Origin: Mucilaginibacter terrae
GTDB taxonomy: Bacteria > Bacteroidota > Bacteroidia > Sphingobacteriales > Sphingobacteriaceae
Direction of reading: 5' to 3'
Length of the DNA stretch: 24,000 nt
NCBI RefSeq assembly: GCF_042679325.1
Contig: NZ_JBHTMJ010000012.1
Span: forward strand, 198,766 to 222,765
Below, in pieces: positions 3,155 to 22,609 of this stretch; the stretch's first letter is position 1, and the number at the start of each line of letters is the position of its first letter. A model generated the notes under the pieces. That model had not been told where the DNA came from, made no database searches, and was given only the letters and a program-made list of their open reading frames with translations. A program made the position numbers and the translations under genes.

Positions 3155-3157
3155 ATT

Positions 3158-4084: not shown

Positions 4085-4085
4085 T

Positions 4086-5199: not shown

Positions 5200-5200
5200 T

Positions 5201-7380: not shown

Positions 7381-7384
7381 TATA

Positions 7385-7783: not shown

Positions 7784-7797
7784 GATGTTACGGCGTT

Positions 7798-8235: not shown

Positions 8236-8250
8236 ATTTATTTTTTGTGA

Positions 8251-8703: not shown

Positions 8704-8729
8704 CGTGTTTCGGTGTTGTTTATTGCTTT

Positions 8730-8755
8730 GTCGCAGCTTACAACCAAACCTTACA
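8730..8755 (-). promoter_or_regulatory. Candidate ECF-type promoter of the YHS-YHS-DoxX-DinB-NRDE/ATP-grasp-Trx operon
   Basis: On the minus strand this reads TGTAAGG (8755-8749), then 15 nt, then CGAC (8733-8730). It lies 26 nt upstream of the ATG at 8703. The same bipartite motif occurs at four other start-proximal sites. Confidence 0.7.
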
Positions 8756-8766
8756 ATAAATTTATT

Positions 8767-8792
8767 TGTAAGGAAAGCTGTTGCGGCGCGAC
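8767..8792 (+). promoter_or_regulatory. Candidate ECF-type promoter of the DM13/beta-barrel operon
   Basis: TGTAAGG (8767-8773), then 15 nt, then CGAC (8789-8792), 28 nt upstream of the ATG at 8821. Confidence 0.7.
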
Positions 8793-8820
8793 CAAACCGT
8801 AAAACCTAATAATTGAGATC

Positions 8821-9255
8821 ATGAAACATTTAATTTATTTAAGCGCTGTAATTGCACTTGCAGTGAGTTTTACCGGCTGTAAAAAAGAAACTACCCCTAT
8901 GGTAGCGCTCAATGAAAAAGTGGACGTTACTATATCTAAACCCGAAACCAGCAGCAGCAGTTTCAGGAACGGTGCTTACGGCTCTGTAACCGGTACCGCC
9001 CGCGTATATGAAACGAATGGTAAATACCAATTAGCATTGGAAAACTTTACCAGCAGCAATGGGCCCGATCTTAAAGTGTATATCAGCAAAGAGCAGCAAC
9101 CTGTTAACTTTGTGAATTTGGGTTCCTTAAAATCTACCGCAGGCAACCAATTGTACGATATACCGGTTAGCATCAATGTTAAAGAATATACGTACGCGCT
9201 GATTTATTGCCAGCAATACAGTCATTTATTCGGTTATACCCAATTCACTTATTAA
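8821..9255 (+). CDS. DM13-domain lipoprotein
   Basis: It has a lipobox (SFTGC) and DM13-like core GTARVYETNGKYQLALENFTSSNGPDLKVYISKE. Confidence 0.75.
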   Translation: MKHLIYLSAVIALAVSFTGCKKETTPMVALNEKVDVTISKPETSSSSFRNGAYGSVTGTARVYETNGKYQLALENFTSSNGPDLKVYISKEQQPVNFVNLGSLKSTAGNQLYDIPVSINVKEYTYALIYCQQYSHLFGYTQFTY

Positions 9256-9257
9256 GT

Positions 9258-10172
9258 ATGAAAAAGATATACCTTACTTGCATTGCCCTGCTATGCACGG
9301 CTTACAGTTTTGCCCAAGGTTGCAGTGATGCAGGCTTTTGCAGCCTTAGCGTGCTAAAAAATAATATTACCGATTCGGCCAACCATACGTTAAGTTTCGG
9401 TTTAAATTATGGTGTTGGCAAAGAGCAAACCAATATTACCAATGCTTACGTGGAATATGGCACCAAGATTAATAGTCGTTTATCATTCCAATCCAAACTC
9501 ACCGCTACTTATGCTACCGGCTTTTTAGGCAGCGCTTTTGATATCGGTGATATTTATGGCACACTCAATTACTCCTTTAAAACAAAGGCTAATTACAGTA
9601 TCAATATCATCGGAGGCGTTAAAGTTCCGCTTACCTCGGGTAATCATAAAAATAAGGATGGTAAACCGCTACCGCTGGATTATCAGGCCAGCATAAGTAC
9701 GTATGATGCTATTGGTGGGATCAATTATATTGTTAACCACAGTTGGGAGTTTGATGCCGGGATACAAGTGCCGGTGATACAAGTTAATAAAAGTACCTAC
9801 TTCCCGGATGAATATAGCGACCCAAGGGCAAAAGAATTTGCGCCAACCAATAATTTCAAGCGCAAAAGTGATATACTTGGCCGCATTGGCTATTATATTC
9901 AGTTTTCGGCATCAAACATCACCCTAAAACCAAGCTTGCTGGGTATCTACCATTTAGGAACTGATACTTATGAGGACCGCTTTGGTCAAATAACTGCGAT
10001 AACCGGATCAGATGGGTTTACGCTGAACGGCAGTATAGTTGGCACTAAAAAGTTCAATAATGGAAATAGCCTGGAAGTGCTTGTTGCTACGCCGTTTATT
10101 GTACGCAAAGTACGACCCGATGGATTGACCCGCGTAGGCGTGATCAATTTGCAATACACCATAGCCTTTTAA
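9258..10172 (+). CDS. Secreted hypothetical protein, probable outer-membrane beta-barrel
   Basis: I chose the start at MKKIYLTCIALL (9258), two nt after the DM13 stop. It has a signal peptide (SFAQG), alternating beta-strand-like patterns and a C-terminal aromatic residue (YTIAF). The mature N-terminus carries GCSDAGFCS. I recognise no family. Confidence 0.55.
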   Translation: MKKIYLTCIALLCTAYSFAQGCSDAGFCSLSVLKNNITDSANHTLSFGLNYGVGKEQTNITNAYVEYGTKINSRLSFQSKLTATYATGFLGSAFDIGDIYGTLNYSFKTKANYSINIIGGVKVPLTSGNHKNKDGKPLPLDYQASISTYDAIGGINYIVNHSWEFDAGIQVPVIQVNKSTYFPDEYSDPRAKEFAPTNNFKRKSDILGRIGYYIQFSASNITLKPSLLGIYHLGTDTYEDRFGQITAITGSDGFTLNGSIVGTKKFNNGNSLEVLVATPFIVRKVRPDGLTRVGVINLQYTIAF

Positions 10173-10277
10173 AACTTTAAACTAAATAAACTGGTGAATA
10201 TTAAAACACAAGGTAGGTAAACATATCTGCATGCGTTTAAATCACAGCCCATAGTCTATATTCGGGGCCACCATTGC

Positions 10278-11060
10278 TTACAATCCCGAATAATAATCAT
10301 AACCCTCCCTGGCCCAGTAATCGGGCGGGCGGGTGTTACTGAAAGTCATAGAGCCGATACGCTTTAAATTTTTTATGCCATACTTAACCGGTATAATCAG
10401 TCGTAAAGGCGCTCCATGATTATGTGGGATAGGCCGGCCATTCATTTCATAGGCTAATATTGTTTGGGGATGAATGGCGCTGGGCATGTCCAGCCCAACC
10501 TGGTATTCCCCATCAGGGGTTATTAAGCCCATGTATTGCATTTTAATCTCTTCAGCCAGCCCAAAGTATTCAATAAAGTCAATCATTTTTAGGCCACCCC
10601 AGTATTGGATCTGGTCCCAGCCCTCCACACATTTGAAATCATAAACGATCTCTGTTTTTGGCAAAGCTTTGATCTGATCGATAGTAATGTGCACAACCTC
10701 GCCGCCTGATTTTTTTACCTCCATCTTCCAGCCGGCAATGTCAATGTTACTTTCCAAGCCAATGTTGCTGTTTTGCCGTACGTTTTTGGCCGCCATTGCT
10801 TTTGGATAAGTTTTAACTAAATGATTATTGCTAAAAAAATTTCGGAAAAAGAGTTCCGTTTTATTCAACGCACGACGTAGCGGCACTTGCGCCCCACCTG
10901 TTATCCCGGTTGCTTCTTCAGGCGAAGTGTACAGTATTCGCCAGCCTTTATAAGCCGCAGCCGAACTCAATGCAAAAACACTCAAGGATATAAAGTTGCG
11001 CCGCTTTATCTTTTGATCAATGGTGAGGGGTTTTTTAACTTTCTTTAGGTTGTTCATCAT
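10278..11060 (-). CDS. Periplasmic molybdopterin-dependent oxidoreductase (sulfite-oxidase fold, YedY/MsrP-like)
   Basis: It has a Tat-like signal (KRRNFISLSVFALSSAAA) and the motif FKCVEGWDQ, which resembles the Mo-ligand cysteine context of YedY-type enzymes. It overlaps the upstream cytochrome b gene by 26 nt. Confidence 0.85.
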   Translation of the reverse strand: MMNNLKKVKKPLTIDQKIKRRNFISLSVFALSSAAAYKGWRILYTSPEEATGITGGAQVPLRRALNKTELFFRNFFSNNHLVKTYPKAMAAKNVRQNSNIGLESNIDIAGWKMEVKKSGGEVVHITIDQIKALPKTEIVYDFKCVEGWDQIQYWGGLKMIDFIEYFGLAEEIKMQYMGLITPDGEYQVGLDMPSAIHPQTILAYEMNGRPIPHNHGAPLRLIIPVKYGIKNLKRIGSMTFSNTRPPDYWAREGYDYYSGL

Positions 11061-11736
11061 CCTTTGATATGTTTAAGGTTTTTGGGGTATTAACTACTTC
11101 GAAGCCTGAGATAACCGACCAGAAGTTTTTCCAGCCAGCCAATATTACCTGTATGATATGGATCAGGAAAAAGATAACATACCCAATTGTTAATATAAAG
11201 TGGATAATACGGGAGGCATGATAGCCCCCGCATAGCCAGGTAATAGTTGCAAATTGTACAGGCTTATAAATAGCAAGCCCGGTTACCAGTGAACCAAGCC
11301 CCATCAAAACTATAGCCGTGTAGGCAATGCGCTGTGCCGCGTTGTACTTATTTTGTGGCGGAAGCATTTTACGGATATGCAGGTCATGCAGCAGCACCAA
11401 CCAGGCCTCTTTAAATGACTTCCTATGCGGTACAAGTTCTCGCCATGAACCGGATATAATTGTGTAGGCTACATAGACCAAACCGTTAAGCGCAAAAAAC
11501 CACATAAATAAAAAGTGGAACGCCATGCCCTTGGCCAAATGCGCAGGTATATCCAACGCTTTGTTAAACCACTCCGGGAAAAACTTGAAATAGGTATGCC
11601 CGAATAGCGAAATGGTGTACACATCGTTACTCCAGTAAATGAGCATGCCGCTCCAAATCATAATGCTAAGCAGCGGAAAGTTGACCCAATGTGTCCAGCG
11701 CATCAGCACGGAATGCTTTTCTTTGATCGTTTTCAT
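11035..11736 (-). CDS. Membrane cytochrome b (Ni/Fe-hydrogenase / thiosulfate-reductase b-type cytochrome family)
   Basis: It begins RWTHWVNFPLLSIMIWSGMLIY and has several hydrophobic helices with conserved His residues (HFLFMWF, HFILTIGYVIFFLIHI). Confidence 0.85.
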   Translation of the reverse strand: MKTIKEKHSVLMRWTHWVNFPLLSIMIWSGMLIYWSNDVYTISLFGHTYFKFFPEWFNKALDIPAHLAKGMAFHFLFMWFFALNGLVYVAYTIISGSWRELVPHRKSFKEAWLVLLHDLHIRKMLPPQNKYNAAQRIAYTAIVLMGLGSLVTGLAIYKPVQFATITWLCGGYHASRIIHFILTIGYVIFFLIHIIQVILAGWKNFWSVISGFEVVNTPKTLNISKDDEQPKES

Positions 11737-11738
11737 CG

Positions 11739-12518
11739 TTACAGCGAAATTGGAAAGCCCGTGCGCGCGGCCGCATTAATTTTGCCTGTTTTACTATCCT
11801 GCAAAAAAGCAATCAACTCGAAATTTTTTGCCGAAAAATTAGGTGGTAATTTTATGTCATTTTCGCCCAAACTGGCGCTTACAGAAATAGTTTTAATATT
11901 AGTAACGATCTGCACGTGCGACAAACTGCGGCCGCGGTTCTCGCCGGCTTTCACTACCGTGGTTGCCTGCTTTTGTACCAACGCTAAAACTATGATGCTG
12001 CCCGATGCGGCATCGGTATGATATTTAATAGTAGCGGAGTTGTTATTGATCTTAACATCGCTCAGGGATAGCTTTACTGTAACGCTTTGTTTTAAACCCA
12101 TGCCGATTGCATTTCGCAGAGTGCCTTCCTGCGACCCAACAAATTCTGTTTGCCCATTAACAATTACCTGCGGCGTGTAAACCGAACTTAAATTCAGCCA
12201 GTTAGCATAGTTGTTTTGCCTGCGTGAGTAATCGGGACTGCTAAACACATCTTTCCAGCCCAGGCGGTTCCAGTAATCCACGTGGTAAGTCAGGATATAA
12301 ACAGGCTTACCTGTTACCTCTTGCTCTATTTTAGCCACCACAGCATCCGCCGGGGGGCAACTGGAGCAACCTTCAGAGGTAAATAACTCCACTACGGCAA
12401 ATCCTTCATCAGCAGCGGCAACTGGCTTTATTTTGTAACTGGTTTGAATAAATGCAAGAGAACTTAAACCTGCAATCTCCATGAATGCCAGCAATAAAAA
12501 TATTTTTATGGTTTTCAT
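11739..12518 (-). CDS. Secreted DUF1223-family thioredoxin-fold protein
   Basis: It has a signal peptide and the hallmark VELFTSEGCSSCPPAD. It lies 2 nt upstream of the cytochrome b gene. Confidence 0.8.
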   Translation of the reverse strand: MKTIKIFLLLAFMEIAGLSSLAFIQTSYKIKPVAAADEGFAVVELFTSEGCSSCPPADAVVAKIEQEVTGKPVYILTYHVDYWNRLGWKDVFSSPDYSRRQNNYANWLNLSSVYTPQVIVNGQTEFVGSQEGTLRNAIGMGLKQSVTVKLSLSDVKINNNSATIKYHTDAASGSIIVLALVQKQATTVVKAGENRGRSLSHVQIVTNIKTISVSASLGENDIKLPPNFSAKNFELIAFLQDSKTGKINAAARTGFPISL

Positions 12519-12539
12519 ATCGGGTATTTTACCTGTTTA

Positions 12540-12565
12540 GTCGGCTTTAAATCAGTATCCTTACA
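12540..12565 (-). promoter_or_regulatory. Candidate ECF-type promoter of the DUF1223/cytochrome b/Mo-oxidoreductase operon
   Basis: On the minus strand this reads TGTAAGG (12565-12559), then 15 nt, then CGAC (12543-12540), 21 nt upstream of the ATG at 12518. A second TGTAAG half-copy lies just upstream. Confidence 0.7.
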
Positions 12566-12595
12566 AATACTTACAGTAAATTAATGATAAATAAC

Positions 12596-12621
12596 TGTAA
12601 GGGTTATGGCATTTTAACTAC
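12596..12621 (+). promoter_or_regulatory. Candidate autoregulatory ECF-type promoter of the sigma/anti-sigma operon
   Basis: TGTAAGG (12596-12602), then 15 nt, then CTAC (12618-12621, one mismatch to CGAC), 18 nt upstream of the ATG at 12640. Confidence 0.6.
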
Positions 12622-12639
12622 TAAAGGTTGTTTACACTA

Positions 12640-13224
12640 ATGGACGATATTAAAACACCTCCCGCCGTTCAGCAGCTTAACCCCAAAAACTGGGTAAAAG
12701 CCTATGCTGATTATTTATACCTATACGCTATTAGCCGCGTAGGCGACGAAGAGCAGGCACGCGACTTGGTGCAGGAAACTTTTTTAGCCGGCCTGCAAAG
12801 TATGCACAAGTTTGCCAACAAGAGTTCCGAACGTACCTGGTTAACAGCCATACTTAAAAATAAAATTTATGATGTGTACCGGAAAAAAGCCAGCGGATTT
12901 AAAACAGAAGAGATGATAAATATAACAGGTGAAGAGCCGGATTACTTTCAAGAAGACGGGCACTGGAAGAAGGATTATGAACCACGGCAATTTGGCGTAG
13001 ATGATTTTGACCCTTTGGTGCATAAAGAACTAAACCAGGCCCTGCAAAAATGCCTGAAAAAACTACCTGCTTTATGGCTGTCTGTTTTTACGATGAAACA
13101 CATGGATGATGAAGCTACTGATTTTGTTTGTGCCGAGCTGCGATTAAGCCAGGCCAATTTTTGGGTAATTATTCACCGGGCGAAACTTAACCTGCGGGCC
13201 TGTCTGCAAAAAAACTGGATGTAA
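12640..13224 (+). CDS. ECF-family RNA polymerase sigma-70 factor
   Basis: It has region 2-like (ARDLVQETFLAGL) and region 4-like (EATDFVCAELRLSQANFWVIIHRAKLNLRACL) segments and is about 195 aa long. The track start at 12628 is a TTG codon, so I prefer the ATG at 12640. Confidence 0.9.
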   Translation: MDDIKTPPAVQQLNPKNWVKAYADYLYLYAISRVGDEEQARDLVQETFLAGLQSMHKFANKSSERTWLTAILKNKIYDVYRKKASGFKTEEMINITGEEPDYFQEDGHWKKDYEPRQFGVDDFDPLVHKELNQALQKCLKKLPALWLSVFTMKHMDDEATDFVCAELRLSQANFWVIIHRAKLNLRACLQKNWM

Positions 13225-13225
13225 G

Positions 13226-13501
13226 ATGAACGACTTTAAAAAAATAATTTATAACTGCCGAAAGGCGACCTACCTGATCGATAAAAGATTAATAGGCAGG
13301 ATAACCTTTCGCGAGACAGTTGAGCTGCGTATGCACCTTTTTGGCTGCAATGTTTGCCGTATTTACATGTGCCAAAGCCAAAAGATCAACGAGATGATCA
13401 GGCAAATGCTAAAGTCAGATCACCAGCCAGAAATAAAGTTAGACGAGAATTTTAAAGATGCCCTACAAGTAAAAATTGAGAACCAATTAAATAAAAATTG
13501 A
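13226..13501 (+). CDS. Small soluble zinc-binding anti-sigma factor (ZAS type)
   Basis: The ATG lies 1 nt after the sigma gene stop. It has Cys11 and His37-x3-Cys41-x2-Cys44 (HLFGCNVC). It has no hydrophobic transmembrane segment and is 91 aa long. Confidence 0.75.
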   Translation: MNDFKKIIYNCRKATYLIDKRLIGRITFRETVELRMHLFGCNVCRIYMCQSQKINEMIRQMLKSDHQPEIKLDENFKDALQVKIENQLNKN

Positions 13502-13506
13502 CTTTT

Positions 13507-13532
13507 TGTAAGGTTTGGTAATGATTAGCGAC
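13507..13532 (+). promoter_or_regulatory. Candidate ECF-type promoter of the Met/Lys-rich mini-protein gene
   Basis: TGTAAGG (13507-13513), then 15 nt, then CGAC (13529-13532), 27 nt upstream of the ATG at 13560. It shares the extended identity TTGTAAGGTTTGGT...CGACAAAG with the YHS promoter. Confidence 0.7.
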
Positions 13533-13559
13533 AAAGGGGCAAACACTAAATAAAAAAAC

Positions 13560-13787
13560 ATGAAAACTTACAAATCACTGATCTCGGGTTTATTATTAAC
13601 AGGCGCTTTATTTCTTGCGTTCAATGTTAACGCTGCTCCTTTTCAAGACAAAATGTCTAAGATGAAAAAAGACTCTATGGAGATGAAAAAAAAGGAGATG
13701 AAAAAAATGGACAAGATGAAGATGGACAAGAAGAAGATGGACAAGAAAAAAATGAAAAAAGATACCTCGAAAATGGGTAAAATGTAA
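13560..13787 (+). CDS. Secreted Met/Lys-rich repeat mini-protein (MxKDx-like pentapeptide repeats)
   Basis: It has a signal peptide (FNVNA|AP). The predicted 50-aa mature part contains 12 Met and 21 Lys by my count, in units such as MKKDS, MKKKE, MDKKK and MKKDT. Confidence 0.7.
   Translation: MKTYKSLISGLLLTGALFLAFNVNAAPFQDKMSKMKKDSMEMKKKEMKKMDKMKMDKKKMDKKKMKKDTSKMGKM
13653..13784 (+). repeat. Purine-rich low-complexity coding repeat (ATG/AAR/GAY units)
   Basis: It contains imperfect tandem units such as atggacaagaagaag / atggacaagaaaaaa. These encode the Met/Lys-rich tail. Confidence 0.6.
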
Positions 13788-14741
13788 TATGCAGTTGATT
13801 GCGAGGTTATTATTGCTTTCCATACGAAGAGGGGCTTTTACCCTTTTTTATATCAGGCAAACTAATGCTATGCTATCGAGATCAAATATGCCTAATCGAT
13901 TCAGATCTGATCGTTGGTATGGAGCACAATTTCCAGGTAATTACCTGCATTTAATATAATAACTGGCTGCCTGCGGTGCAGGTACAAGTACCCGTCAAAT
14001 TAAAGGACCATAGGTAATTAGAAATTAAAAGGCCTCAAATTAAAATTTGAGGCCTTTTAATTGTTTTTGTTATATGCGGAGAGTTAGGGTTCAGAACCTA
14101 AGCTCCTATGCTTTGATTAACAGTGCTTTGCATTTTGAAAAGTTCCCTACTTTACGAATTACGCAAATAGCAAGTTACTCTAATTGTTAAATTGAATATA
14201 CTGTATTTAACGATTCTCATAAAGATTTTCTATTCTTGAAATGAAGTTACTTTCTTGTAAGTATAAACCATCCCAGGTGATATTGAGGATGTGGAATTAT
14301 TATTTAAAAATTAAGTGGCGATAACTTAAGAGCTCTAATATAGATTTATCTTAAAGGTTTTATTATGGTGTTCGCAATTTGAATAAAAGCATTTACCTTA
14401 CCGCTAAACCGTATTATATTGAGTTTTTTTTAAAAGCTTTATCGATGCGCATAAATATTTATAAGCAGTTCGAATTCGTTAAGTTTCAATGCTTTGTTGT
14501 GGTCTTTAATCCAGCTTATATCCTTAAAAGTGGCAGGTGGTATAATAATGGACAAAAACATATTTTGTGGTAATAAGCACTAAGCAGCCTAATCCCAATT
14601 CATCTTTTATCTTCTCAGGGATAATTCCATTACATAATTTATTGTATTAAACTTAGTCTTAATGATTATAAAATTATCTTAAAAAGAAAATTTTGATAAA
14701 AACCAAACTTACACTTCGGCGTTACTTACATAAAACAACAC
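13788..14741. other. ORF-poor AT-rich spacer at the left border of the glycosyltransferase block
   Basis: About 0.95 kb without a convincing gene. One hand-counted 60-nt line (14581-14640) was about 32% GC. It contains the strong hairpin at 14027-14058. Confidence 0.6.
14027..14058. terminator. Strong, potentially bidirectional intrinsic terminator hairpin
   Basis: AAAAGGCCTCAAAT-taaa-ATTTGAGGCCTTTT forms a perfect 14-bp stem with a 4-nt loop. It has A-run and T-run flanks and is followed by ttgtttttgtt. Confidence 0.7.
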
Positions 14742-15896
14742 ATGCAAGCCATAAACACTTGTGAGTCTTCTCCAAAATTATTCAAAATTGAGCCGAAAGA
14801 AGCAATGCGGATCGCGGTCATTGTACCAGTAAAAAACGAAGCAGAAGGATTGGTGCGTACCCTGGATGCTCTAAGGATGCAAAAGGATGAAACAGGTTTG
14901 CCGCTCCATCCTTCAATATACGAAGTGTTACTATTAGCTAATAATTGTACGGACAACACTTTTAAGATTGCTCAGCAATATCAGACCCTATTCCCAAGAT
15001 TTAACCTGCATATCTCCGAGATTGATCTGCCAAAACCTGATGCTCATATCGGCACGGTAAGAAGAATGATGATGGATGAGGCTTATGAAAGATTTATGTC
15101 CATCGGACAAGCAAAAGGAATAATAGTATCTACCGATGGGGATAGTGAGGTTGACAGCCAGTGGATTCATTTTATATTAATAGAAATGGATAAAGGAAAT
15201 GATGTGGTAGGAGGGCGCATATTAACAAGAAACACACCATCATTATCAAAAATGCATCATTTAAGGGATGTGAGTTACCGGTATCATTTAAGCCGACTCG
15301 AATCTATACTGGATCCGTCTCAATTTGATCCTTGGCCACGGCATTTTCAGTGCTACGGTCCAAGTTTGGCTGTAACGTGCGATATTTATCATAAGGCGGG
15401 GCGTATTCCGGCTATTCCATACCTGGAGGACGAAGAGTTCAGAAAAGCGCTTTACCGGATTGATGCCAAAGTAAGAAAATCACCCTTGGTTAAAGTGTAC
15501 ACATCCGCCAGACTTATAGGCAAAGTAACTTTTGGGTTTTCCGTACAGTTGAAGCAATGGGGAGATATGACGCTTGAAAATCAGCAGCAACAGGTAGAAC
15601 CGCTGCCCTCACTAATCCAGAAAACTAAAGTCAAAAATGAATTGCGCCAAGTATGGAAAAGTAAGGAAGAACTATATGCTGAAGATCACCGCTTGCAAAA
15701 AATTAGCACGGGGTTGATGCTGGATCTGCAGTGGCTCTATGAAAGGATCAGCGCATCCTCCTATTTTGGCGAGTTATGGGAATCAATAGAAGACGAACTG
15801 GAAAACGGACGCTGGAGAGAAGTTCATTCGTTGGAACCTATTTCCCAGGTAATCAGTAATTTTAGGCAATTTTTTTATGGTGCAAATTTGGCTTAA
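14742..15896 (+). CDS. Family-2 glycosyltransferase (GT-A fold)
   Basis: It has the N-terminal motif RIAVIVPVKNEAEGLVRTLDALRMQ and an acidic motif STDGDSEVD. An alternative start MRIAVIV at 14805 is possible. Confidence 0.85.
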   Translation: MQAINTCESSPKLFKIEPKEAMRIAVIVPVKNEAEGLVRTLDALRMQKDETGLPLHPSIYEVLLLANNCTDNTFKIAQQYQTLFPRFNLHISEIDLPKPDAHIGTVRRMMMDEAYERFMSIGQAKGIIVSTDGDSEVDSQWIHFILIEMDKGNDVVGGRILTRNTPSLSKMHHLRDVSYRYHLSRLESILDPSQFDPWPRHFQCYGPSLAVTCDIYHKAGRIPAIPYLEDEEFRKALYRIDAKVRKSPLVKVYTSARLIGKVTFGFSVQLKQWGDMTLENQQQQVEPLPSLIQKTKVKNELRQVWKSKEELYAEDHRLQKISTGLMLDLQWLYERISASSYFGELWESIEDELENGRWREVHSLEPISQVISNFRQFFYGANLA

Positions 15897-16714
15897 TGAA
15901 AAATGTATCGGTCGTGATTCTTGTCAGGGAGCGCCATTCCGCCCTTTGCCAAACTATGCTGGGTTTGGCAAAGGGTCAGCACTTACCGGGAGAACTTATC
16001 GTAGTGAACATGAATCAGATTCCGGGCGAGCTGCCCGATATGCCTTTCCCTGTAAGGCAGATCAGCATTTGCTCCGTTGCTATGCTTCCACTTGCTGAAG
16101 CAAGAAATGAGGGTATGGCTGCCAGCTTTTATAAACGGATAGTTTTCCTTGATGTAGATTGCATTCCGGCACCGAATATGCTCACGATTTACGGAGAACA
16201 GTGGGACGATAACCAGTTGCTTTCTGGCCAGGTACGTTATTTGCCGGCCCTTGCTGCCGGAAAGGCTTATGACCAAGAAAACCTTCATGCTCACAGCATT
16301 GCCGACCCGTTAAGGTCAGGGCTGGCTGAACTCCCTTATGAACTTTTTTGGTCTTTAAATTTTGGGTCCAGTAAAACTTTGTTTGCCTTAATCGGCGGCT
16401 TTGATGTGGGTTTTCAAGGCTATGGTGCAGAAGATACCGACTTTGCCTTCGCTGCGCGTCAAAAAAACGTCCCTGTCAAGAATATTCAGGCAACTGCTTA
16501 CCACCAGTACCATGAGAGTTACTCACCGCCGTTAAATCATCTTTCGGATATCATTGCTAATGCAAATCGCTTTTACATCAAATGGAAAAAATGGCCAATG
16601 GAAGGATGGCTATTGAAATTTGAAGAAGCAGGATTGATTTCCCGGACGGGAACCAACATACAATTATTGCGCAAGCCTACCCATGTAGAGATCCAATTAG
16701 CCTTAAAGATCTGA
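15896..16714 (+). CDS. GT-A fold glycosyltransferase (GT2 / galactosyltransferase-like)
   Basis: It has VSVVILVRERHSAL, the DxD motif FLDVDCIP, and GYGAEDTDFAF, which resembles the galactosyltransferase C-terminal region. Its start overlaps the upstream stop (TAATG). Confidence 0.8.
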   Translation: MKNVSVVILVRERHSALCQTMLGLAKGQHLPGELIVVNMNQIPGELPDMPFPVRQISICSVAMLPLAEARNEGMAASFYKRIVFLDVDCIPAPNMLTIYGEQWDDNQLLSGQVRYLPALAAGKAYDQENLHAHSIADPLRSGLAELPYELFWSLNFGSSKTLFALIGGFDVGFQGYGAEDTDFAFAARQKNVPVKNIQATAYHQYHESYSPPLNHLSDIIANANRFYIKWKKWPMEGWLLKFEEAGLISRTGTNIQLLRKPTHVEIQLALKI

Positions 16715-17776
16715 TCAGGGCGAACCGAAAAGCTGTATCGCCAACTGATCTATTGCCGCGGCAACTTGTGAAAGGGCCTGCTCATTGATAATTCCCTGCC
16801 ATTCAGGCTGCGAGCGGCTCAACTTGTCAAGTATATCCTGCCAATCGGTTTTAAAGAGCGCTTCGGGCATAACCAACGGGATAGCGAAGTGTCGTTGAAT
16901 GAGTAAAGCTTTTTGCAACTGCTCCTCGAACGGGCGTTTCTCAGGAATACAGATAAATGCTTTTTGTAAATCGGCGACCTCCATCACGGTATTGTGACCG
17001 GCGTTGCCGATCACAATACGGCATATATTGAGTACGGTTTCAGGCTCAGCACATCTCCCGTGAAAGGAAACGTTCCCCGATGACCAGTTTTGAGTGGCTA
17101 TATCACCAAGAATATGGAAATGATGCTCCGGGCAAACCCTTGCTATATGCCTGATAAAAGAAAGGCTGATACTGGTGCCCCCTCTTCCGGTTATTACAGC
17201 GACGCATTTGTCATCGCCTATAGTCAATGCTGTTTTTTTTAAGCCGGTATATCTGGAAAAACCGCCTGCAAAAAAAGTTTTTTCATCCACCCATTTTATA
17301 GAACCTGTACGTAGCCTCTCGGGATAAGGCGCCAACAGCAGAGATGCGCTTTGATAAGCAGCCAGGTGAGCAGTATCATTTCGGCTGCCGTGCTGGCGCA
17401 TGACAATCGACGGTATGCCGGATAACCTGGCAAACAGAGCGACCTCAACAGAAACATCAACGATCAAAATAATAGGGTAGGTGGCTGCAAAAAAATCACT
17501 TAGCAGTTGGTTTCTTAGGCGAATGCCGGTAACATTTAAAGGTGCATAGTGCAGGCAATCGACCGCAGTACCCGCAACGTAAGCATGGTCGTCTTCATCA
17601 GGCACGTCCGCAGGTAAATGAATACACCGGATCGACGGGGGAATGACGGTTTGATAATCCCGCATACCGCTTCCCAAAAAGGTAATCGGCCTATCCAAAT
17701 GCGCAGCTATAGCCAGCGCGCGCATCAGATGCCCTGAGCCATGATGATGAATGTAAAAGCCGATATTATAGCTCAT
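16715..17776 (-). CDS. GT-B fold glycosyltransferase (GT1/GT28, MurG-like)
   Basis: It has IHHHGSGHLMRALAIAAHL at the N-terminus and GNAGHNTVMEVADLQKAFICIPEKRPFEEQ in the C-terminal nucleotide-sugar binding region. The track start at 17800 is TTG. I prefer the ATG at 17776 (MSYNIGFY), which overlaps the upstream stop region. Confidence 0.75.
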   Translation of the reverse strand: MSYNIGFYIHHHGSGHLMRALAIAAHLDRPITFLGSGMRDYQTVIPPSIRCIHLPADVPDEDDHAYVAGTAVDCLHYAPLNVTGIRLRNQLLSDFFAATYPIILIVDVSVEVALFARLSGIPSIVMRQHGSRNDTAHLAAYQSASLLLAPYPERLRTGSIKWVDEKTFFAGGFSRYTGLKKTALTIGDDKCVAVITGRGGTSISLSFIRHIARVCPEHHFHILGDIATQNWSSGNVSFHGRCAEPETVLNICRIVIGNAGHNTVMEVADLQKAFICIPEKRPFEEQLQKALLIQRHFAIPLVMPEALFKTDWQDILDKLSRSQPEWQGIINEQALSQVAAAIDQLAIQLFGSP

Positions 17777-19109
17777 CTGCGGACTTAATAAACACATCAA
17801 GCCGATAATCTTTGGTTCGTGTAGATGACACCGGCTTAAAGGATGGATCGTTCAAGAATACTTCGTGCACCTGATCACCTGTCAGCGGATAATCCACAAC
17901 ATAATGGGTCCAGTGAACCATGATCAAAGTACCACCGGACAGAAGACTATCTGCGATTTTTCGCTTTGCAGCCAATAGGTCTTCCAAAGAAAGATAATAT
18001 CCTACTTCACTCATGACAACTAAGTCGAAGTTTCCTTCGGGATATTCATCAGGTATCGCTGCTAGCCTGAATTCAACCTCAGGATGTTTCATTAAACGTT
18101 CACGCGCAACCTCCAGGGCAGTAGCGCTGATATCGATAGATAATAAGTGCAAGCACCTGGTGCGTAGTAATTTCGTCAGCACACCTATAGAACAGCCTAT
18201 TTCCAGTGCGTTGCTATAGGTAGCCCTAGTCAGGTAAGCTATAGTGGTAGCATACTTTTCTTTTTCATACTCGCTTGCTTCAAAATTCCAGGGATCGCGG
18301 TTCTGCTGATACAGCTGTTGAAAATATACAGCAGACAGGGTGCGTTCTTTTTTGAGTTTTTGCCGCTCCATAAAATACTCCTTGCCCGTTAAAAAGTTCC
18401 CGGTCATTTCCGCACTCAGCATAAACCCATCCAGATCATCACTAATCAGGTTGCTCACCTGTGATCGGTGGGCAGCAATAGCCCTTGTTTTCTGTTCCAA
18501 AAAAGCGGAGATGTCGACGGCTATTAATTCCCCGGCGCCTAATACCGGAATGTCCGCATCCTCTGCGTTTTGGTACAGCCAGATTGGGTATTCCCAAACG
18601 GTAATGCCGTTGTTCTTCACTTCTTCCAACGCGGCGGTCAATAACTGCCAGGTGGCTCGGTGATCACAATGCGGGTCCAATTCATAGGGAACCAGGCACA
18701 GCTTAGGATTGGTAGTATGAATAATGTCTTTCAACATTTCTTTAAAGCCAATGAAACCCTCGTCATCCTTACCAGGCAGTGCGGCATCCCGGCCATGTAA
18801 AAAGTGAATATGTTCTCCAGAAACCTGCAGTAAAGCCAATGCCTCCTTAATCTCTTTTTCGCGCAGGGCGATACGGGCAGCTTCGGGGTATTCCTTGGAA
18901 TTAGGATGGGACTGACTGCCGTCTGTAGTTACAACGATCGTTACCAGACAACCTCGCTGGCGTAACAAGGTGATCAGTCCGCCGCAACCCAGTGATTCGT
19001 CGTCAGGATGTGGTGCTAATACCAGGCAGCTGTCAATGCCCATGAAAAAGTCAGGGTAAACGGGTATTGCGCTGTCCCAGAAAGCGACTTTATTAAATGG
19101 ATTGGGCAT
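17766..19109 (-). CDS. Fusion protein: PIG-L/LmbE-family de-N-acetylase (N-terminal) plus class-I SAM methyltransferase, NodS-like (C-terminal)
   Basis: The PIG-L motifs are VLAPHPDDESLGCGGLI and DPHCDHRAT. The SAM-binding motif is ALEIGCSIGVLTKLL, followed by FDLVVMSEVGYYL. It overlaps the upstream ACAD-like gene by 17 nt. Confidence 0.85.
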   Translation of the reverse strand: MPNPFNKVAFWDSAIPVYPDFFMGIDSCLVLAPHPDDESLGCGGLITLLRQRGCLVTIVVTTDGSQSHPNSKEYPEAARIALREKEIKEALALLQVSGEHIHFLHGRDAALPGKDDEGFIGFKEMLKDIIHTTNPKLCLVPYELDPHCDHRATWQLLTAALEEVKNNGITVWEYPIWLYQNAEDADIPVLGAGELIAVDISAFLEQKTRAIAAHRSQVSNLISDDLDGFMLSAEMTGNFLTGKEYFMERQKLKKERTLSAVYFQQLYQQNRDPWNFEASEYEKEKYATTIAYLTRATYSNALEIGCSIGVLTKLLRTRCLHLLSIDISATALEVARERLMKHPEVEFRLAAIPDEYPEGNFDLVVMSEVGYYLSLEDLLAAKRKIADSLLSGGTLIMVHWTHYVVDYPLTGDQVHEVFLNDPSFKPVSSTRTKDYRLDVFIKSADEL

Positions 19110-20238
19110 CTTCAGATTGATGTTTTATGAAATGATCGGCAATAGCCAGTCTGGTCGCATCCGGCGCTGGCTGGCGCAAGTAAAAAGTAAGGTCCCTGTT
19201 CAGACGTTCAAGTGGTGATGGAGACATTAGCCCCCTTGCGCCTACACATTGGTTACTGGCCTGCATAACCCGCAAACCGATCTCTTCAATTACCGTACGC
19301 GTCATATTAGCAAAAGCAATGAGTTCACCCGAACGTTCAGAATCATTAACCCAGTTGTCAAAGTTCTTGCCTGCCTGATGTAGCCATAGTTCCCCGGTTG
19401 TAATATCTATCAGCATAGCGGCCAATCTGGCTTTTTGGAACGGATCGCCGGTACGCTCCATCGCAGACAAGTAATCCATAGTATGTCCGAGAATAGCCTC
19501 GGCGCCGCCGAACTGTACCGCAGCGAACCGTATGGCACCGCTGTTGAAATAAGGTTGGCCGAGGTAGTCGCCCGGCAGGCCCAACAGTTCTTGTTCCATA
19601 ATAGGGCAACCGGTAAAATCGGTGGTGAAACTTCCGGAAGCTTTCATGCCCAATGTTTCCCAGCTGTTCCTGTCCACCCTTTCTGGTCCGATCCGGCTCA
19701 TGTCGAGGATCATCATTTGCCATCCTTTCCGGTTCGGAGTATCAATGTTTCCGGTGATCAGCGCATGCGTTACAATCGATACCCCGGAACAAAATGTTTT
19801 TGCGCCATGCAGCATTAGCTGCTCTGCATTACTTTCATAAGTGATACCATTTGCTGCCTGTGTACTCCATACGCCAAAAATGGCCTGCTCGTGGAGCACC
19901 GCATCGTACCAAGCCTTTTTTTGTATCGCTGTTCCATAAAGATGTAAAAGATATAGGGCATTGATATGACCTTCATAGATACGACCAACCGAAAGATTTG
20001 CTTTGCCCACCCGTTTCAAAAGTCCAAGTAGTGCTGCGGTATCAGGTCTATTGAAATCGAGTGGTTCCCCTGGCAACACGATTTTGAGCGCACCGCATTC
20101 AGCCAGCCATTGAAACTCCTTCACCGGTGCTATTTGTGGATCATCGATATTCGATGCGTTTGCTGCTATACGCTCCAGGCAGTCTTTGAAATCTTTCAAT
20201 TCAATGTCAAATAACGTTTTTATCATGGGGTTAAACAT
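19093..20238 (-). CDS. Acyl-CoA dehydrogenase-fold flavoenzyme (function unassigned)
   Basis: 381 aa with ACAD-like middle and C-terminal segments (WETLGMKASGSFTTDFTG, FAAVQFGGAEAILGHTMDY). It overlaps the GT4 stop by 8 nt (ATGTTTAA). Confidence 0.75.
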   Translation of the reverse strand: MFNPMIKTLFDIELKDFKDCLERIAANASNIDDPQIAPVKEFQWLAECGALKIVLPGEPLDFNRPDTAALLGLLKRVGKANLSVGRIYEGHINALYLLHLYGTAIQKKAWYDAVLHEQAIFGVWSTQAANGITYESNAEQLMLHGAKTFCSGVSIVTHALITGNIDTPNRKGWQMMILDMSRIGPERVDRNSWETLGMKASGSFTTDFTGCPIMEQELLGLPGDYLGQPYFNSGAIRFAAVQFGGAEAILGHTMDYLSAMERTGDPFQKARLAAMLIDITTGELWLHQAGKNFDNWVNDSERSGELIAFANMTRTVIEEIGLRVMQASNQCVGARGLMSPSPLERLNRDLTFYLRQPAPDATRLAIADHFIKHQSEDAQSI

Positions 20239-21322
20239 TACCGGTTAAAGCTAAACGCTGCGTGACAATTGATCCTAAAAATTTTTCATACCGGGTGAGC
20301 ATTTCTTCAATACTCAACTTTGCTTCGGCATAGTTTCGGATCTTTTGACGGTCAAGCGTCATCGCCTTACGGATCGCAACGGCCAGACCGGGCGCATTGC
20401 CGGGCTCAACTAAAAAGCCCGCTTCATCTGTAACGATTTCCGGCAAGGCACCAGCCTTTACACCCGCTACCGGCGTTCCGCAGGCCAACGCTTCGGCTAC
20501 CACCAAACCGAATGGCTCCTGCCATACTGGAGTGATCAGACAAACCTTGGCCTCACCGATAAGCCGGTTAAGCTGCTGATGATCCAGAAGACCCATCATT
20601 TGGGTATTGTCGTCCAGCAACGGTTCTATTTTCTCTGAATAATATTTCTTATCTCCAATGCCACCAGCTACTTTCAAGGGTATTCCGGCCAGCTTTGCTG
20701 CCCGAATGGCTAGGTCAAGCCCCTTATCAGGATGAATACGGCCAAACCACACCGCATAATTATTCTGTGTGCCCGTTGGATAGTACGTCCATTTGGCAAG
20801 ATCAATGCCGTTATAAATAAAAGGGCAATCGGGAATAAATTCTTTCCAGTTGTCTGCGTTAGATTGGGATACGGTAACATAATAGATGTTTTTAAATCGC
20901 TGTTCTGCGCGAGTCGCCAGTTGAAGCTCATAAAAGGGCGGTGTATGCAGAACGGTAACCATGGGCGTTTTTATAACACCCGCCATAGTGATCGGTACAT
21001 AATGCAGGCTGTTATTAAAAACTACATCCAGCTCGAGCGCATCAATCTCCGTCATCATGCGGTAATAAGCATGGTGTTCCGCGATATATTCTGAACTCAA
21101 ATCCGGCTTCTTAGGCCGCATTCCGTTACTTGCGTCATAAGATATATCGTCCAAAATTGGATGCAATGTCCCACCTGCCGTTGAGGAAGAACTGGCAAAG
21201 AGGACCACCTCATGTCCCCGCTGAGTCAGACGGTGCGTAATTTCATATGTAAAGGCCTCAAGCCCACCCGCAAATGGCGCCTTAATAGGATGTTTTAGAT
21301 GTGCAATGACGCCAATTTTCAT
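20231..21322 (-). CDS. Family-4 glycosyltransferase (GT-B, 'group 1')
   Basis: It begins MKIGVIAHL...GGLEAFTYEITHRLTQRGHEVVLFA and carries the C-terminal motif EPFGLVVAEALACGTPV (E-x7-E type). The track start at 21331 is TTG, so I prefer the ATG at 21322. Confidence 0.85.
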   Translation of the reverse strand: MKIGVIAHLKHPIKAPFAGGLEAFTYEITHRLTQRGHEVVLFASSSSTAGGTLHPILDDISYDASNGMRPKKPDLSSEYIAEHHAYYRMMTEIDALELDVVFNNSLHYVPITMAGVIKTPMVTVLHTPPFYELQLATRAEQRFKNIYYVTVSQSNADNWKEFIPDCPFIYNGIDLAKWTYYPTGTQNNYAVWFGRIHPDKGLDLAIRAAKLAGIPLKVAGGIGDKKYYSEKIEPLLDDNTQMMGLLDHQQLNRLIGEAKVCLITPVWQEPFGLVVAEALACGTPVAGVKAGALPEIVTDEAGFLVEPGNAPGLAVAIRKAMTLDRQKIRNYAEAKLSIEEMLTRYEKFLGSIVTQRLALTGNV

Positions 21323-21331
21323 GTTAAGCAA

Positions 21332-22237
21332 TGGATGAATTTATTATTAGAATTTTTTTAGAATAAACAAGTAGCTAATAGACTTGTTTTATGAACAAAT
21401 TTTTATAAAAGCAAACTTGTTACCGCGAACAAAGTATTCCGGTAGGAGGGGTTGAGCCATCGCCTCTATTTATTTTGTCAGCGCTTCTTCCCCAGCCAGA
21501 TCGACTCTGAAACATCGCCGTCAGATGGATTTCACAGTTTGTGAATAATTTGTAAGCTCAATAGGCTTCGCAACTTTAAACATAACGATGCATCACCAAT
21601 CCAGTGATTTTGGTAATGAATTAATGAAAAATGTATGAAATAGCCTCAGCAACCCGCCGCGAGTCGTAAACCAGGTTGCAGGTTTTAAAAACTTACCAGT
21701 GTAATTAGCTGCATGGCTGATACCGGGCGTATTTAAAAAGACCGGGAAAGATCACATACATTGATTTTTCGCCAGACAGACAGACAGTTCCGCCTTAAAA
21801 CCTTCATGCCAACCTCTGAAGCTAAAATCAGAAGCCGTGTAACCGCCGCCGTATGGGACAGGAAGAAACCGGTTTTGATAACATAGTTAAGCAATTACTT
21901 TTGGCCGCTTAAACCGAACTCACGTTAATCAGCTAAATTAGGGGTTTTTCTTTTTTGAAAAGTTAAGTTCGGGAAACGTACGCTAATAAAAAAACTAAAA
22001 CAAATACATAAATATTTAAAAAAAGCATAAAAATCTATTTTTTTGTATCAGGGATTGTTGTGTTTTAAGGCGGAAGCAAATAACAGCGTTATCCAACCAT
22101 TGGCTACTGCAATTTCTTCTAAAGGATTAAAACGTTGTAAGAATCATTAAATCCAGAACTTTGGCTAATAGAAAGCGTAGTTTAGCTAAATCCACATCAT
22201 GATCGATACTGATCTTTGCCCCATAAATTAATTTATC
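21332..22237. other. ORF-free spacer at the right border of the glycosyltransferase block
   Basis: About 0.9 kb with no ORF of 60 aa or more that lies wholly inside it, in any frame of the supplied track. I recognise no RNA gene in it. Confidence 0.55.
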
Positions 22238-22609
22238 ATGAAAGCGATAAGAATCAATTATTTTGGTGGACCAGAGGTCATGAAGTTAGAAGAAATATCA
22301 CGCCCGGTACCGGCTGCAGACGAAGTTTTGGTAGAAGTATATGCCAGCGGTGTAAACCCTGTAGATTGGGTTATCAGAAGCGGCGAAAACGAAGGCTTGC
22401 GATCTTTCCTTAAATTACCAATGACATTAGGTTGGGATGCTGCCGGAGTAGTTGTGGAAACCGGAAGAGAGGTTACATCTTTGAAAGCAGGTGATCAGGT
22501 TTATGGGGTTCCTAACTTTCCGGGCGACGGAAGCTATGCGGAGTTTATGCATTTTGCCAGCTATCAAAAGTGCATTATATGCGTTTATCACACCGCCTGT
22601 ACGGCTTAG
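22238..22609 (+). pseudogene. Truncated NADPH:quinone oxidoreductase / zinc-type alcohol dehydrogenase family gene (N-terminal GroES-like part only)
   Basis: MKAIRINYFGGPEVMKLEEISRPVPAADEVLVEVYASGVNPVDW...GDQVYG...GSYAEF is a typical MDR-family N-terminus. The Rossmann domain is missing. After about aa 103 the frame reads the antisense of the converging S8 gene and stops at 22609. Confidence 0.65.

Follow-up and report, generated by a model that had tools for sequence, protein, structure and literature searches.

We analyzed a 24,000-nucleotide stretch of the Mucilaginibacter terrae genome (RefSeq assembly GCF_042679325.1, contig NZ_JBHTMJ010000012.1, positions 198,766 to 222,765 of the forward strand; hereafter the window), focusing on a block of six enzyme genes at 14742-21322 that an initial annotation had described as a candidate acquired pathway for a glycoconjugate. 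Open reading frame (ORF) calls and Pfam agreed with the families and positions that had been assigned to the six genes. The plus strand carries two GT2 glycosyltransferase genes, GT2a (14742-15896; Glycos_transf_2) and GT2b (15896-16714; GT2/Glyco_transf_7C), which overlap by 1 nt (TAATG). The minus strand carries GT4 (20231-21322, with the longest ORF starting from a TTG at 21331; Glyco_transf_4 and Glycos_transf_1), a flavoprotein with the acyl-CoA dehydrogenase (ACAD) fold (19093-20238; Acyl-CoA_dh), a fusion protein (17766-19109; PIG-L and NodS/Methyltransf), and GT-B (16715-17776, with the longest ORF reaching 17800; Glyco_tran_28_C). Measurement upheld the description of two convergent, internally overlapping operons. 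Their stop codons abut with zero gap (16714/16715), and the minus-strand overlaps, annotated as 8-17 nt, are 8 nt for GT4/ACAD, 17 nt for ACAD/fusion, and ~11 nt for fusion/GT-B if GT-B starts at 17776. This start (MSYNIG) is the one called in the closest relative (locus L081), and the resulting 353-aa form occurs in both L081 and L082.

No transmembrane segments were predicted in any of the six proteins. In domain searches of the window ORFs, neither the block nor the DNA next to it contained a gene for a flippase, a polymerase, an ABC exporter, or nucleotide-sugar synthesis, as had been reported, and the initiating phosphoglycosyltransferase and chain-length regulator of Wzx/Wzy- or ABC-type capsule and O-antigen loci were likewise absent from the block and its flanks. 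The presence of tailoring enzymes without export or polymerization genes supports the earlier suggestion of a small glycolipid or glycoside rather than a capsule or O-antigen. An anti-phage defense system was rejected because no PADLOC system protein set matched: the fusion protein gave only a generic methyltransferase-domain match to mad2, and the other five proteins gave none.

The fusion protein joins an N-terminal PIG-L/LmbE zinc deacetylase domain (approximately aa 29-246; Pfam PIG-L at 88.8 bits, cut-off 28.2) to a class I S-adenosylmethionine (SAM) methyltransferase domain of the NodS-like type (approximately aa 270-400; Pfam NodS at 68.8, cut-off 24). The motifs AHPDDE, DPHxDH, and EIGCSIG were invariant in the fusion-protein alignment. 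The PIG-L half has the residues expected of a zinc deacetylase, with P33, H34, D36, D37, E38, D145, H147, D149, and H150 all invariant (alignment A1), and the SAM-binding motif is retained in the methyltransferase half. In the Protein Data Bank (PDB), the nearest matches to the PIG-L half were diacetylchitobiose deacetylases (2e-10), which act on the non-reducing N-acetylglucosamine (GlcNAc) of chitobiose. The methyltransferase half matched 4ISC (7e-23), NodS 3OFJ (4e-12), and phosphoethanolamine N-methyltransferases.

The ACAD-fold protein exceeded the Pfam cut-offs for Acyl-CoA_dh_1 (35.4 bits against 22.4) and Acyl-CoA_dh_2 (27.8 against 22.7) and aligned over its full length to both short-chain acyl-CoA dehydrogenase (SCAD) and DszC, placing it within the fold. 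In acyl-CoA dehydrogenases, the catalytic base occupies one of two positions, exemplified by Glu376 of the medium-chain enzyme (MCAD) and Glu254 of isovaleryl-CoA dehydrogenase (IVD). In the block protein, Gln356 stands at the position of the SCAD catalytic Glu (YEG) and Gly234 at the alternative IVD-type position, and both residues were invariant in 29 diverse homologues from several phyla. Because neither position holds a Glu and both are fixed, the sequence makes an acyl-CoA dehydrogenase role very unlikely. When the family profile was searched against the PDB, DszC came first (2e-27, 99 bits), with TdsC, true ACADs (1e-23, 87 bits), and MsuC (1e-21) following. The best NCBIfam match was SfnB (59 against a cut-off of 431), while DszC reached 40 against 850, and the family has invariant motifs of its own (GRIYEGH, GxKTFCSG, and RDLTxYLRQPAPD). 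The protein is best read as a predicted flavin-dependent oxygenase or oxidase.

Four glycosyltransferases complete the block. GT2a is a soluble GT-A enzyme (GT2) with a helical C-terminal domain and a DGD motif (Glycos_transf_2 at 45 bits), which retains ~50% identity between bacterial orders and shows 69 invariant columns in alignment A5. Its AlphaFold2 model (mean predicted local distance difference test score of 85) returned generic GT2 folds from the PDB in a Foldseek search, namely RmlT, TarS, HAS, and ArnC at TM-scores of ~0.4. GT2b is a second GT-A enzyme, with a DVD motif, that is translationally coupled to GT2a and weakly matches chondroitin polymerase in the PDB. GT-B has a GT28/MurG-like C-terminal half (Glyco_tran_28_C at 24.5 bits) and a weak NCBIfam match to MJ1255/VC2487, with no match among PDB sequences. 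GT4 is a retaining enzyme with an E-x7-E motif and a putative member of the TeGSS/BGluT subfamily, as its full-length PDB matches were 7FG9, a glucosylsucrose synthase (4.5e-44), and 5ZER, a tetrahydrobiopterin glucosyltransferase (1e-34). The former is TeGSS, whose catalytic residues include Tyr18 and Arg179 (PMC9909042). GT4 conserves the Arg (GR...KG) but has Ala at the position of Tyr18, so its acceptor probably differs. Both TeGSS and the pteridine glucosyltransferases use small soluble acceptors (PMC9909042; PMC5683033).

To place the block among its relatives, we searched a profile of the fusion protein against contigs from one genome per species, which gave at least 573 matching genome stretches from at least six phyla. 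We then took the 80 best loci, mapped the window's six proteins onto them, and clustered every ORF that they contain. A universal core emerged, in which an ACAD-fold gene is followed by PIG-L and methyltransferase, with GT2a, its sole glycosyltransferase, either convergent or co-directional (present in 63 of 81 loci). PIG-L and methyltransferase are fused in 45 loci and adjacent but separate in 24. The core occurs in Bacteroidota (Sphingobacteriaceae, Cytophagales, Chitinophagaceae, Saprospiraceae, and Flavobacteriaceae), Actinomycetota (Arthrobacter and Microbacteriaceae), Pseudomonadota (including Alphaproteobacteria), Deinococcota (Deinococcus), Cyanobacteriota, and Acidobacteriota. These six phyla bear out the earlier statement that LmbE-type deacetylase, methyltransferase, ACAD-like, and glycosyltransferase genes co-occur elsewhere. 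In most phyla, the core consists of three or four genes by themselves. The remaining genes, GT4, GT-B, and GT2b, form an accessory trio. Mucilaginibacter and Pedobacter have this trio attached to the core, and in Flavobacteriaceae it lies 3-6 kb away; it also occurs in a Microbacteriaceae locus. In these last two families, GT2b keeps company with GT4 and GT-B in a trio of their own. We also found the core on 58 plasmid or megaplasmid records, including those of Deinococcus, Nostoc, Sulfitobacter, Novosphingobium, and Acinetobacter. On plasmids of rhizobia, genuine nodS genes matched only the methyltransferase third of the fusion. The product remains unassigned, as had been stated: our search of the full-text literature found no publication characterizing the cluster and only passing mentions in papers on Acinetobacter baumannii.

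Several loci depart from the common arrangement of the core. In an Acidobacteriaceae metagenome-assembled genome (MAG; L072), the ACAD-fold domain is fused to a NodS-like methyltransferase in one frame (8801-10597, 598 aa), and PIG-L is a separate gene (11740-12732) behind GT2a, an alternative fusion pattern with the same four functions. Together, the PIG-L/methyltransferase and ACAD/methyltransferase fusions place all three tailoring activities in a single pathway. On a replicon resembling chromosome II of Deinococcus radiodurans (L086), the ACAD-fold protein (1190-3529) has a 420-aa N-terminal extension with an "IAETG" stretch reminiscent of glycoside hydrolases. This extension is not GT2a-like, and we rejected the idea of a GT2-ACAD fusion; in the same locus, a DEAD-box helicase gene is inserted between PIG-L and methyltransferase. 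In another Acidobacteriaceae MAG (L060), a fusion of a GT1-type glycosyltransferase and UDP-galactopyranose mutase (11915-14356) adjoins GT2a, which hints at galactofuranose in the product of that lineage. Finally, 10 loci from two phyla have a membrane protein of the BrkB/YihY family in direct linkage with the core, in Cytophagales (L054, L057, and L059) and Arthrobacter (e.g., L043, L047, and L048). No other membrane protein recurs, and this one could be an exporter or flippase of the product.

Upstream of each operon in M. terrae lies a candidate promoter of the extracytoplasmic function (ECF) sigma type. On the plus strand, AAAC-N16-CGTT (14700-14723) ends 19 nt before the GT2a ATG and is conserved in both position and sequence in L081 and L001. 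On the minus strand, AAAAC-N16-TGTT (21366-21390) precedes the GT4 operon. Only ~70 nt upstream of GT2a and ~64 nt of the right spacer are conserved with L081, and the two motifs fall inside these segments. A relaxed form of the motif had three intergenic matches in the 24-kb window, one at the GT2a site and one on each strand at the GT4 site. The match on both strands arises because the GT4-side motif is also a perfect inverted repeat (21365-21390) with 8-bp arms, AAACAAGT-N8-ACTTGTTT. This palindrome, which was not seen in the Pedobacter copies, could equally be a candidate binding site for a dimeric regulator.

Across Sphingobacteriaceae, the pattern A[AG]AAC-N16/17-YGTY lies 19-64 nt before the start codons of both operons and was present in 12 of 24 upstream regions, compared with 0.22 expected from shuffled sequences. 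By contrast, only 2 of ~60 homologous upstream regions from other Bacteroidota groups contained it. The motif resembles ECF-sigma promoters and not the Bacteroidota housekeeping type, a lead that comes from sequence pattern. The EcfG consensus of the alphaproteobacterial general stress response (GGAAC-N16/17-CGTT) showed no enrichment upstream of the module, with 1 of 20 hits. We also considered the nearby ECF sigma gene (12628) as regulator. We do not propose this sigma factor, since its gene has no motif upstream and its orthologues in two other Mucilaginibacter are not beside the block.

The neighbors of the core in other genomes include many stress genes. We defined seven stress families (KatE-type catalase, DUF892, YetF/DUF421, YtxH, Dps, BrkB, and DUF2383) and found members within 10 kb of the core in 26 of 81 loci. 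On a Sulfitobacter plasmid, a catalase gene is directly downstream of the core, and on an Acinetobacter ursingii plasmid (L087), the core sits between catalase/DUF421/DUF2171 and otsA/otsB. In A. baumannii, genes ACICU_02432-02435 adjoin blsA and encode the same four-function core. Their expression shifts jointly in published A. baumannii transcriptomes, falling 31-62-fold in colistin-dependent and colistin-resistant mutants. No function is on record for these genes, which appear in the literature as a blsA neighbor or as a line in an expression table. The genes that recur around the core suggest that it functions under oxidative or desiccation stress, and the pathway is probably stress-expressed.

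Taken together, we judge with moderate confidence that the block represents, in Sphingobacteriaceae, an ancient, widespread, and uncharacterized cytoplasmic pathway to a tailored amino-sugar glycoside, linked to stress. In the scheme that we favor, GT2a would transfer an N-acetylhexosamine (most simply GlcNAc from UDP-GlcNAc) to an acceptor, which could be a small molecule in solution or a lipid of the membrane. The PIG-L domain would then remove the N-acetyl group, the fused NodS-like domain would methylate the freed amine, and the translationally coupled ACAD-fold flavoprotein would oxidize the (methyl)amine or another heteroatom. In Sphingobacteriaceae, the GT4/GT-B/GT2b module would act as a second stage that adds further sugars, and both operons may be read from a shared ECF-like alternative-sigma promoter. 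Our analysis shows the gene content, catalytic motifs, conservation and synteny, breakpoints, and composition, and from these we infer the substrate, step order, type of oxidation, regulation, and physiological role. More tentatively, it is possible, if doubtful, that the core, present in hundreds of species, makes an undescribed N-methylated, N- or S-oxidized glucosamine glycoside that serves as a stress protectant or low-molecular-weight redox buffer, is co-deployed with catalase, Dps, and trehalose synthesis, and is extended to an oligosaccharide in Sphingobacteriaceae.

Several observations weigh against this scheme. No substrate, product, or phenotype is on record for any family member, and the fold search with GT2a gave no clue to donor or acceptor. 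For the ACAD-fold protein, the margin of DszC over true ACADs was modest (99 vs. 87 bits), and no flavin reductase partner was found among the window ORFs or the recurring neighbor families, although one may be encoded elsewhere in the genome. All NCBIfam equivalog scores were far below their cut-offs. Furthermore, none of the seven stress families adjoins the block in the window. Both the promoter pattern and the list of stress families were defined post hoc, and the loci are phylogenetically non-independent, which inflates the enrichment figures.

The same enzymes might instead form a detoxification or salvage module, in which PIG-L acts as a conjugate amidase (like Mca or LmbE-type enzymes) and the others modify xenobiotics or damaged metabolites. 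The PIG-L family does include conjugate amidases, and Mca and MshB were among the weak NCBIfam matches. The nearest relatives of the ACAD-fold protein oxidize sulfur xenobiotics (the substrates of DszC), and stress and efflux genes occur as neighbors, including a glutathione S-transferase gene in Sulfitobacter. However, the deacetylase/N-methyltransferase fusion, the conserved and dedicated GT2, and the three extra glycosyltransferases fit stepwise assembly better, leaving this explanation very improbable.

A second alternative is that the enzymes decorate an envelope polymer, such as the lipopolysaccharide core, a capsule, or an exopolysaccharide, whose polymerization and export genes lie elsewhere in the genome. 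Four glycosyltransferases, with weak NCBIfam similarity to EpsD, EpsE, and HpsE, would suit such a role. The GT4/GT-B/GT2b trio of Flavobacteriaceae comes after a GT2 that is embedded in the membrane by transmembrane helices, and the BrkB/YihY neighbors, the drop of the A. baumannii operon in colistin mutants, and a NeuB-containing cluster 10 kb to the left of the block all point in the same direction. Still, the window lacks Wzx, Wzy, Wzz, an ABC exporter, and a polyprenyl-phosphate glycosyltransferase, each of the six proteins is soluble, and the closest characterized relatives of GT4 act on soluble small molecules. The core also manages with three or four genes on its own in most phyla. We therefore regard envelope decoration as unlikely.

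The Acinetobacter loci raise a further possibility, that the pathway glycosylates a cytoplasmic protein and that the attached sugar is then deacetylated, methylated, and oxidized. A gene for a 77-aa DUF2171 protein lies divergently beside the four-gene core on the A. ursingii plasmid (5363-5596) and corresponds to A1S_2230/ACICU_02436 of A. baumannii, where it ranks with the genes of highest expression and strongest regulation in published transcriptomes. Such a small, highly expressed protein, a constant neighbor in Acinetobacter, could be an acceptor, and soluble glycosyltransferases without lipid-carrier machinery would be compatible with a protein target. Yet no candidate acceptor protein is conserved beside the core across phyla, and GT4 subfamily members of known function use small molecules; protein glycosylation thus seems highly improbable. 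The reading that we prefer remains a pathway to a tailored amino-sugar glycoside.

The position of the block in M. terrae has its own history. To the left, two relatives, Mucilaginibacter sp. 21P and a Mucilaginibacter MAG, are collinear with the DNA at 10255-14004 and share its order of molybdopterin oxidoreductase, cytochrome b, DUF1223, sigma, anti-sigma, and small secreted protein. For each of them, collinearity breaks off at 14004/14005, within a cupin gene that both relatives keep intact. The window retains only the last ~50 of its 194 codons, frameshifted, on the minus strand (13856-14004): in a tblastn search, the intact cupins of L084 and L085 matched residues 145-194 only, in two frames. 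This remnant marks the left breakpoint. The MAG keeps its own six-gene block on a separate contig (L011). Just 18 nt to the right of the breakpoint (14005 to 14023) begins a perfect palindrome (14023-14062) with 19-bp arms followed by a T-run, which resembles a terminator and was found in none of the 85 fetched loci. Relaxed Rfam searches of both spacers gave only sub-threshold matches, centered on this hairpin, and at the gathering threshold the whole window had no Rfam match and no tRNA.

On the right, a 906-nt spacer (21332-22237) contains no ORF of note and no Rfam match, and beyond 21390 it is not conserved with the relatives. It is followed on the plus strand by a truncated gene of the zinc alcohol dehydrogenase (ADH)/quinone oxidoreductase family (22238-22609; 123 aa), of which only the N-terminal GroES-like domain (Pfam ADH_N) remains. 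Its homology stops near 22550, as does that of a subtilase gene on the opposite strand, marking the right breakpoint. The ADH fragment ORF overlaps the 3′ part of the subtilase gene at 22427-22609, and the subtilase gene itself runs beyond the window end with its N-terminus not cut. The right neighbor is thus a gene wreck, as annotated. The accompanying claim of ~0.9 kb of non-coding DNA on each side held for this ORF-poor right spacer and failed on the left, where the gap (13502-14741) holds the cupin remnant, the hairpin, and a 75-aa gene (13560-13787, plus strand). Between these features and GT2a lie ~680 nt of DNA with 28-33% GC (guanine plus cytosine). The 75-aa ORF comes after the ECF sigma/anti-sigma pair and keeps this position in two other Mucilaginibacter (55% identity), indicating a real gene rather than spacer. 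Its product has a signal peptide and a Lys/Met/Asp-rich tail encoded by a 15-nt tandem repeat (five copies offset by 15 nt, KMDKK-like).

Searches for mobility functions agreed with the annotation, which had reported no integrase or att repeats. Domain searches of the window ORFs and a tRNA search found no integrase, transposase, or tRNA target, and repeat searches gave nothing beyond chance level. The best flanking direct repeat was 25 nt long; because it is only 80% identical and one copy lies inside the GT4 coding sequence, we treated it as chance and not as an att site. A simple insertion into the cupin gene is unsupported, as the 5′ part of that gene and the histidine kinases downstream of it are nowhere in the window. 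Nonetheless, the synteny break, the cupin remnant on the left, and the truncated ADH gene on the right bear out the suspected rearrangement, and the segment from 14005 to ~22550, lying between two gene wrecks, is relocated in this lineage. The route may have been intragenomic translocation, inversion/deletion, or replacement from another Mucilaginibacter. A block that sits at a lineage-specific rearrangement junction would account for both the AT-rich spacers and the two gene wrecks.

Base composition had been one ground for suspecting acquisition, from GC counts of single 60-nt lines. The individual values were right (58.3%, 53.3%, and 45.0%), but they come from the upper tail, and the line at 16201, assigned to the minus operon, actually lies in GT2b in the plus operon. 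Instead of the proposed 53-58%, mean GC in the minus operon was 47.7%, compared with 43.6% in the plus operon, 41.6% in other coding DNA, and 31.9% and 36.8% in the left and right spacers. The 60-nt lines of the block nevertheless differed significantly from the rest (Mann-Whitney p = 3e-8), and windowed GC and signature analysis confirmed that the block is the extreme of the 24-kb window for dinucleotide usage (delta* of 92-96 vs. 39-66 elsewhere) and tetranucleotide usage (r of 0.78-0.81 vs. 0.91-0.94). GC at third codon positions (GC3) is 0.40-0.48 in block genes, inside the range of other window genes (0.33-0.52), and the GC excess stems largely from first codon positions (GC1) and amino-acid usage, with FYMINK residues at 25.9% in the block vs. 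32.8% elsewhere in the window. Across 63 loci, module GC tracks host GC from 32% to 77% and lies above that of the flanking ORFs in 56, with a mean excess of 2.4 points. In the closest relative (75.7% nucleotide identity), the block has 46% GC between flanks of 32-35%. Because the block exceeds its flanks in nearly all loci whatever the host GC, the modest excess is a family trait.

Synteny of the six genes extends to 3 other loci from Mucilaginibacter and 9 from Pedobacter, with protein identities of ~58-79% within Mucilaginibacter and 40-60% to Pedobacter. A neighbor-joining tree of the PIG-L half placed the Mucilaginibacter clade, window included, as sister to the Pedobacter clade. Three proteins of the window, namely the fusion protein, GT2a, and the flanking ECF sigma factor, match NCBI entries of M. 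terrae at 100% identity. The best non-self protein matches of the block (78-79%) are about as distant as that of this sigma factor (80%). The synteny, the genus-congruent tree, the family-wide GC excess, and the sigma-like match distance all argue against a recent import from a distant donor, and the initial proposal of horizontal acquisition is largely refuted by the conserved gene set, even though the position of the block is not conserved. Two other arrangements occur in the family. A second, core-only lineage in Sphingobacteriaceae MAGs (L018 and L073) has split PIG-L and methyltransferase genes with ~40-44% identity and groups with Dyadobacter and Spirosoma, and Pedobacter hartonius (L014) has all six genes rearranged, with a split PIG-L/methyltransferase. 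These make some transfer or paralogy inside Bacteroidota likely.

Recent acquisition of a foreign island, with a pathway that the lineage previously lacked, would explain why the block has GC 4-6 points above the rest of the window and an extreme dinucleotide and tetranucleotide signature, and why it lies between AT-rich spacers with truncated genes and a synteny break at its flanks. The flanks of the block differ in every genome examined, the core travels on conjugative and mobilizable plasmids in other phyla, and the PIG-L tree shows some cross-phylum nesting. However, the same six genes in the same order in Mucilaginibacter and Pedobacter, with genus-congruent branching, argue against a recent import. 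So do the excess over flanks regardless of host GC, the unremarkable GC3, matches no closer than those of the flanking sigma factor, and the lack of an integrase, tRNA, or att repeat. We consider a foreign island quite unlikely. The block appears to be largely a family-wide, vertically inherited set that was relocated in this lineage, and recent foreign import is not supported. One point on the other side is that the block is compositionally the most deviant 6.6 kb of the window, which leaves room for replacement by a copy from another Mucilaginibacter.

Other gene sets in the window are separate from the block. At 85-4463 (plus strand), a class III aminotransferase gene cut by the window start is followed by genes for an SDR protein, a HAD-NeuB fusion of the sialic-acid-synthase family, a fatty-acid hydroxylase, and a small membrane protein of the SMR family, the last overlapping the preceding gene by 50 nt. 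This cluster, 10 kb from the block, is the only set of sugar-synthesis type in the window and could represent a lipid or nonulosonic-acid-like pathway. A run of small genes of redox character at 4777-9255 encodes a protein resembling thioredoxin, one of 562 aa with TANGO2 as its N-terminal domain, DoxX, a tandem pair of YHS-domain proteins, and a protein with a DM13 domain. A molybdopterin oxidoreductase and a cytochrome b561-like membrane protein (an MsrPQ-like pair) and then DUF1223 are encoded at 10278-12518 on the minus strand, in the same order as in Mucilaginibacter sp. 21P and with protein identities of 69-86%.

Should the core produce a defined metabolite, then a product that has not been described is widespread, from soil and marine Bacteroidota to Actinomycetota, Deinococcus, cyanobacteria, Alphaproteobacteria, and A. 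baumannii. The stress-gene company (KatE-type catalase, Dps, DUF892, YtxH, and otsA/otsB) and the co-regulation in A. baumannii point to survival of desiccation or oxidative stress, which bears on the persistence of A. baumannii on hospital surfaces. Our analysis provides testable predictions on the substrate class, the step order, the non-dehydrogenase role of the ACAD-fold protein, and the promoter positions, and it points to tractable organisms for examining them.

The closest known systems each share part of this design. As in the block, a glycosyltransferase is encoded together with a PIG-L/LmbE deacetylase in the mycothiol (MshA/MshB), bacillithiol (BshA/BshB), butirosin (BtrM/BtrD), hopanoid glucosamine (HpnI/HpnK), and glycosylphosphatidylinositol (PIG-A/PIG-L) pathways. 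In all of these pairs, GlcNAc is installed and its amine is then exposed. The best NCBIfam matches of the block deacetylase were BshB2 (70 against a cut-off of 195), BshB1 (57 against 183), and MshB (29 against 224). The glycosyltransferase equivalogs BshA and MshA scored 46 against 274 and 43 against 463. No cysteine ligase of the BshC/MshC type was found among the window ORFs, which sets the block apart from bacillithiol and mycothiol synthesis. In addition, its amine is predicted to be methylated and oxidized rather than cysteine-acylated, and its core glycosyltransferase is a GT2 rather than a GT4.

The NodB/NodS pair resembles the proposed steps more directly, with GlcNAc deacetylation followed by SAM-dependent N-methylation, and the block methyltransferase matches NodS in both Pfam and the PDB. 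However, the Nod deacetylase is a CE4 enzyme (NodB) and that of the block is a PIG-L protein. The block also has no NodC-type membrane chitin-oligomer synthase and no NodA acyltransferase. With the NodS equivalog at 73.9 against a cut-off of 300 and no NodA, NodB, or NodC nearby among the window ORFs, it does not qualify as a nod locus. DszC/TdsC, MsuC, SfnB, and the nitrososynthases ORF36, KijD3, and DnmZ share with the block protein an ACAD fold without the catalytic Glu, and its profile also matches the amino-sugar nitrososynthases (5e-14 to 5e-16). It differs in its own invariant motifs, its position below the curated cut-offs of SfnB and DszC, and the lack of a nearby flavin reductase. 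Because the BshA, BshB, MshA, MshB, NodS, SfnB, and DszC equivalog scores all fell below their cut-offs, the block belongs to none of those pathways, and the check for a characterized pathway by homology, as the initial annotation had suggested, reached no NCBIfam equivalog cut-off.

For GT4, the closest solved relatives in full-length alignment are TeGSS (7FG9) and the BGluT/PGT pteridine glycosyltransferases (5ZER and 9V0L). The GR...KG Arg and the E-x7-E motif are shared with TeGSS and its Tyr18 is replaced, and GT4 belongs to the accessory trio rather than to the universal core. A counterpart of the core itself is found in Acinetobacter. Unlike the block, ACICU_02432-02435 keeps PIG-L and methyltransferase as separate genes and has no GT4/GT-B/GT2b module. 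Still, it encodes a glycosyltransferase, a SAM methyltransferase, an LmbE protein, and a protein resembling acyl-CoA dehydrogenases, the same families as the block core, and the Acinetobacter plasmid core retains 33% identity to the fusion over 83% of the fusion's length.

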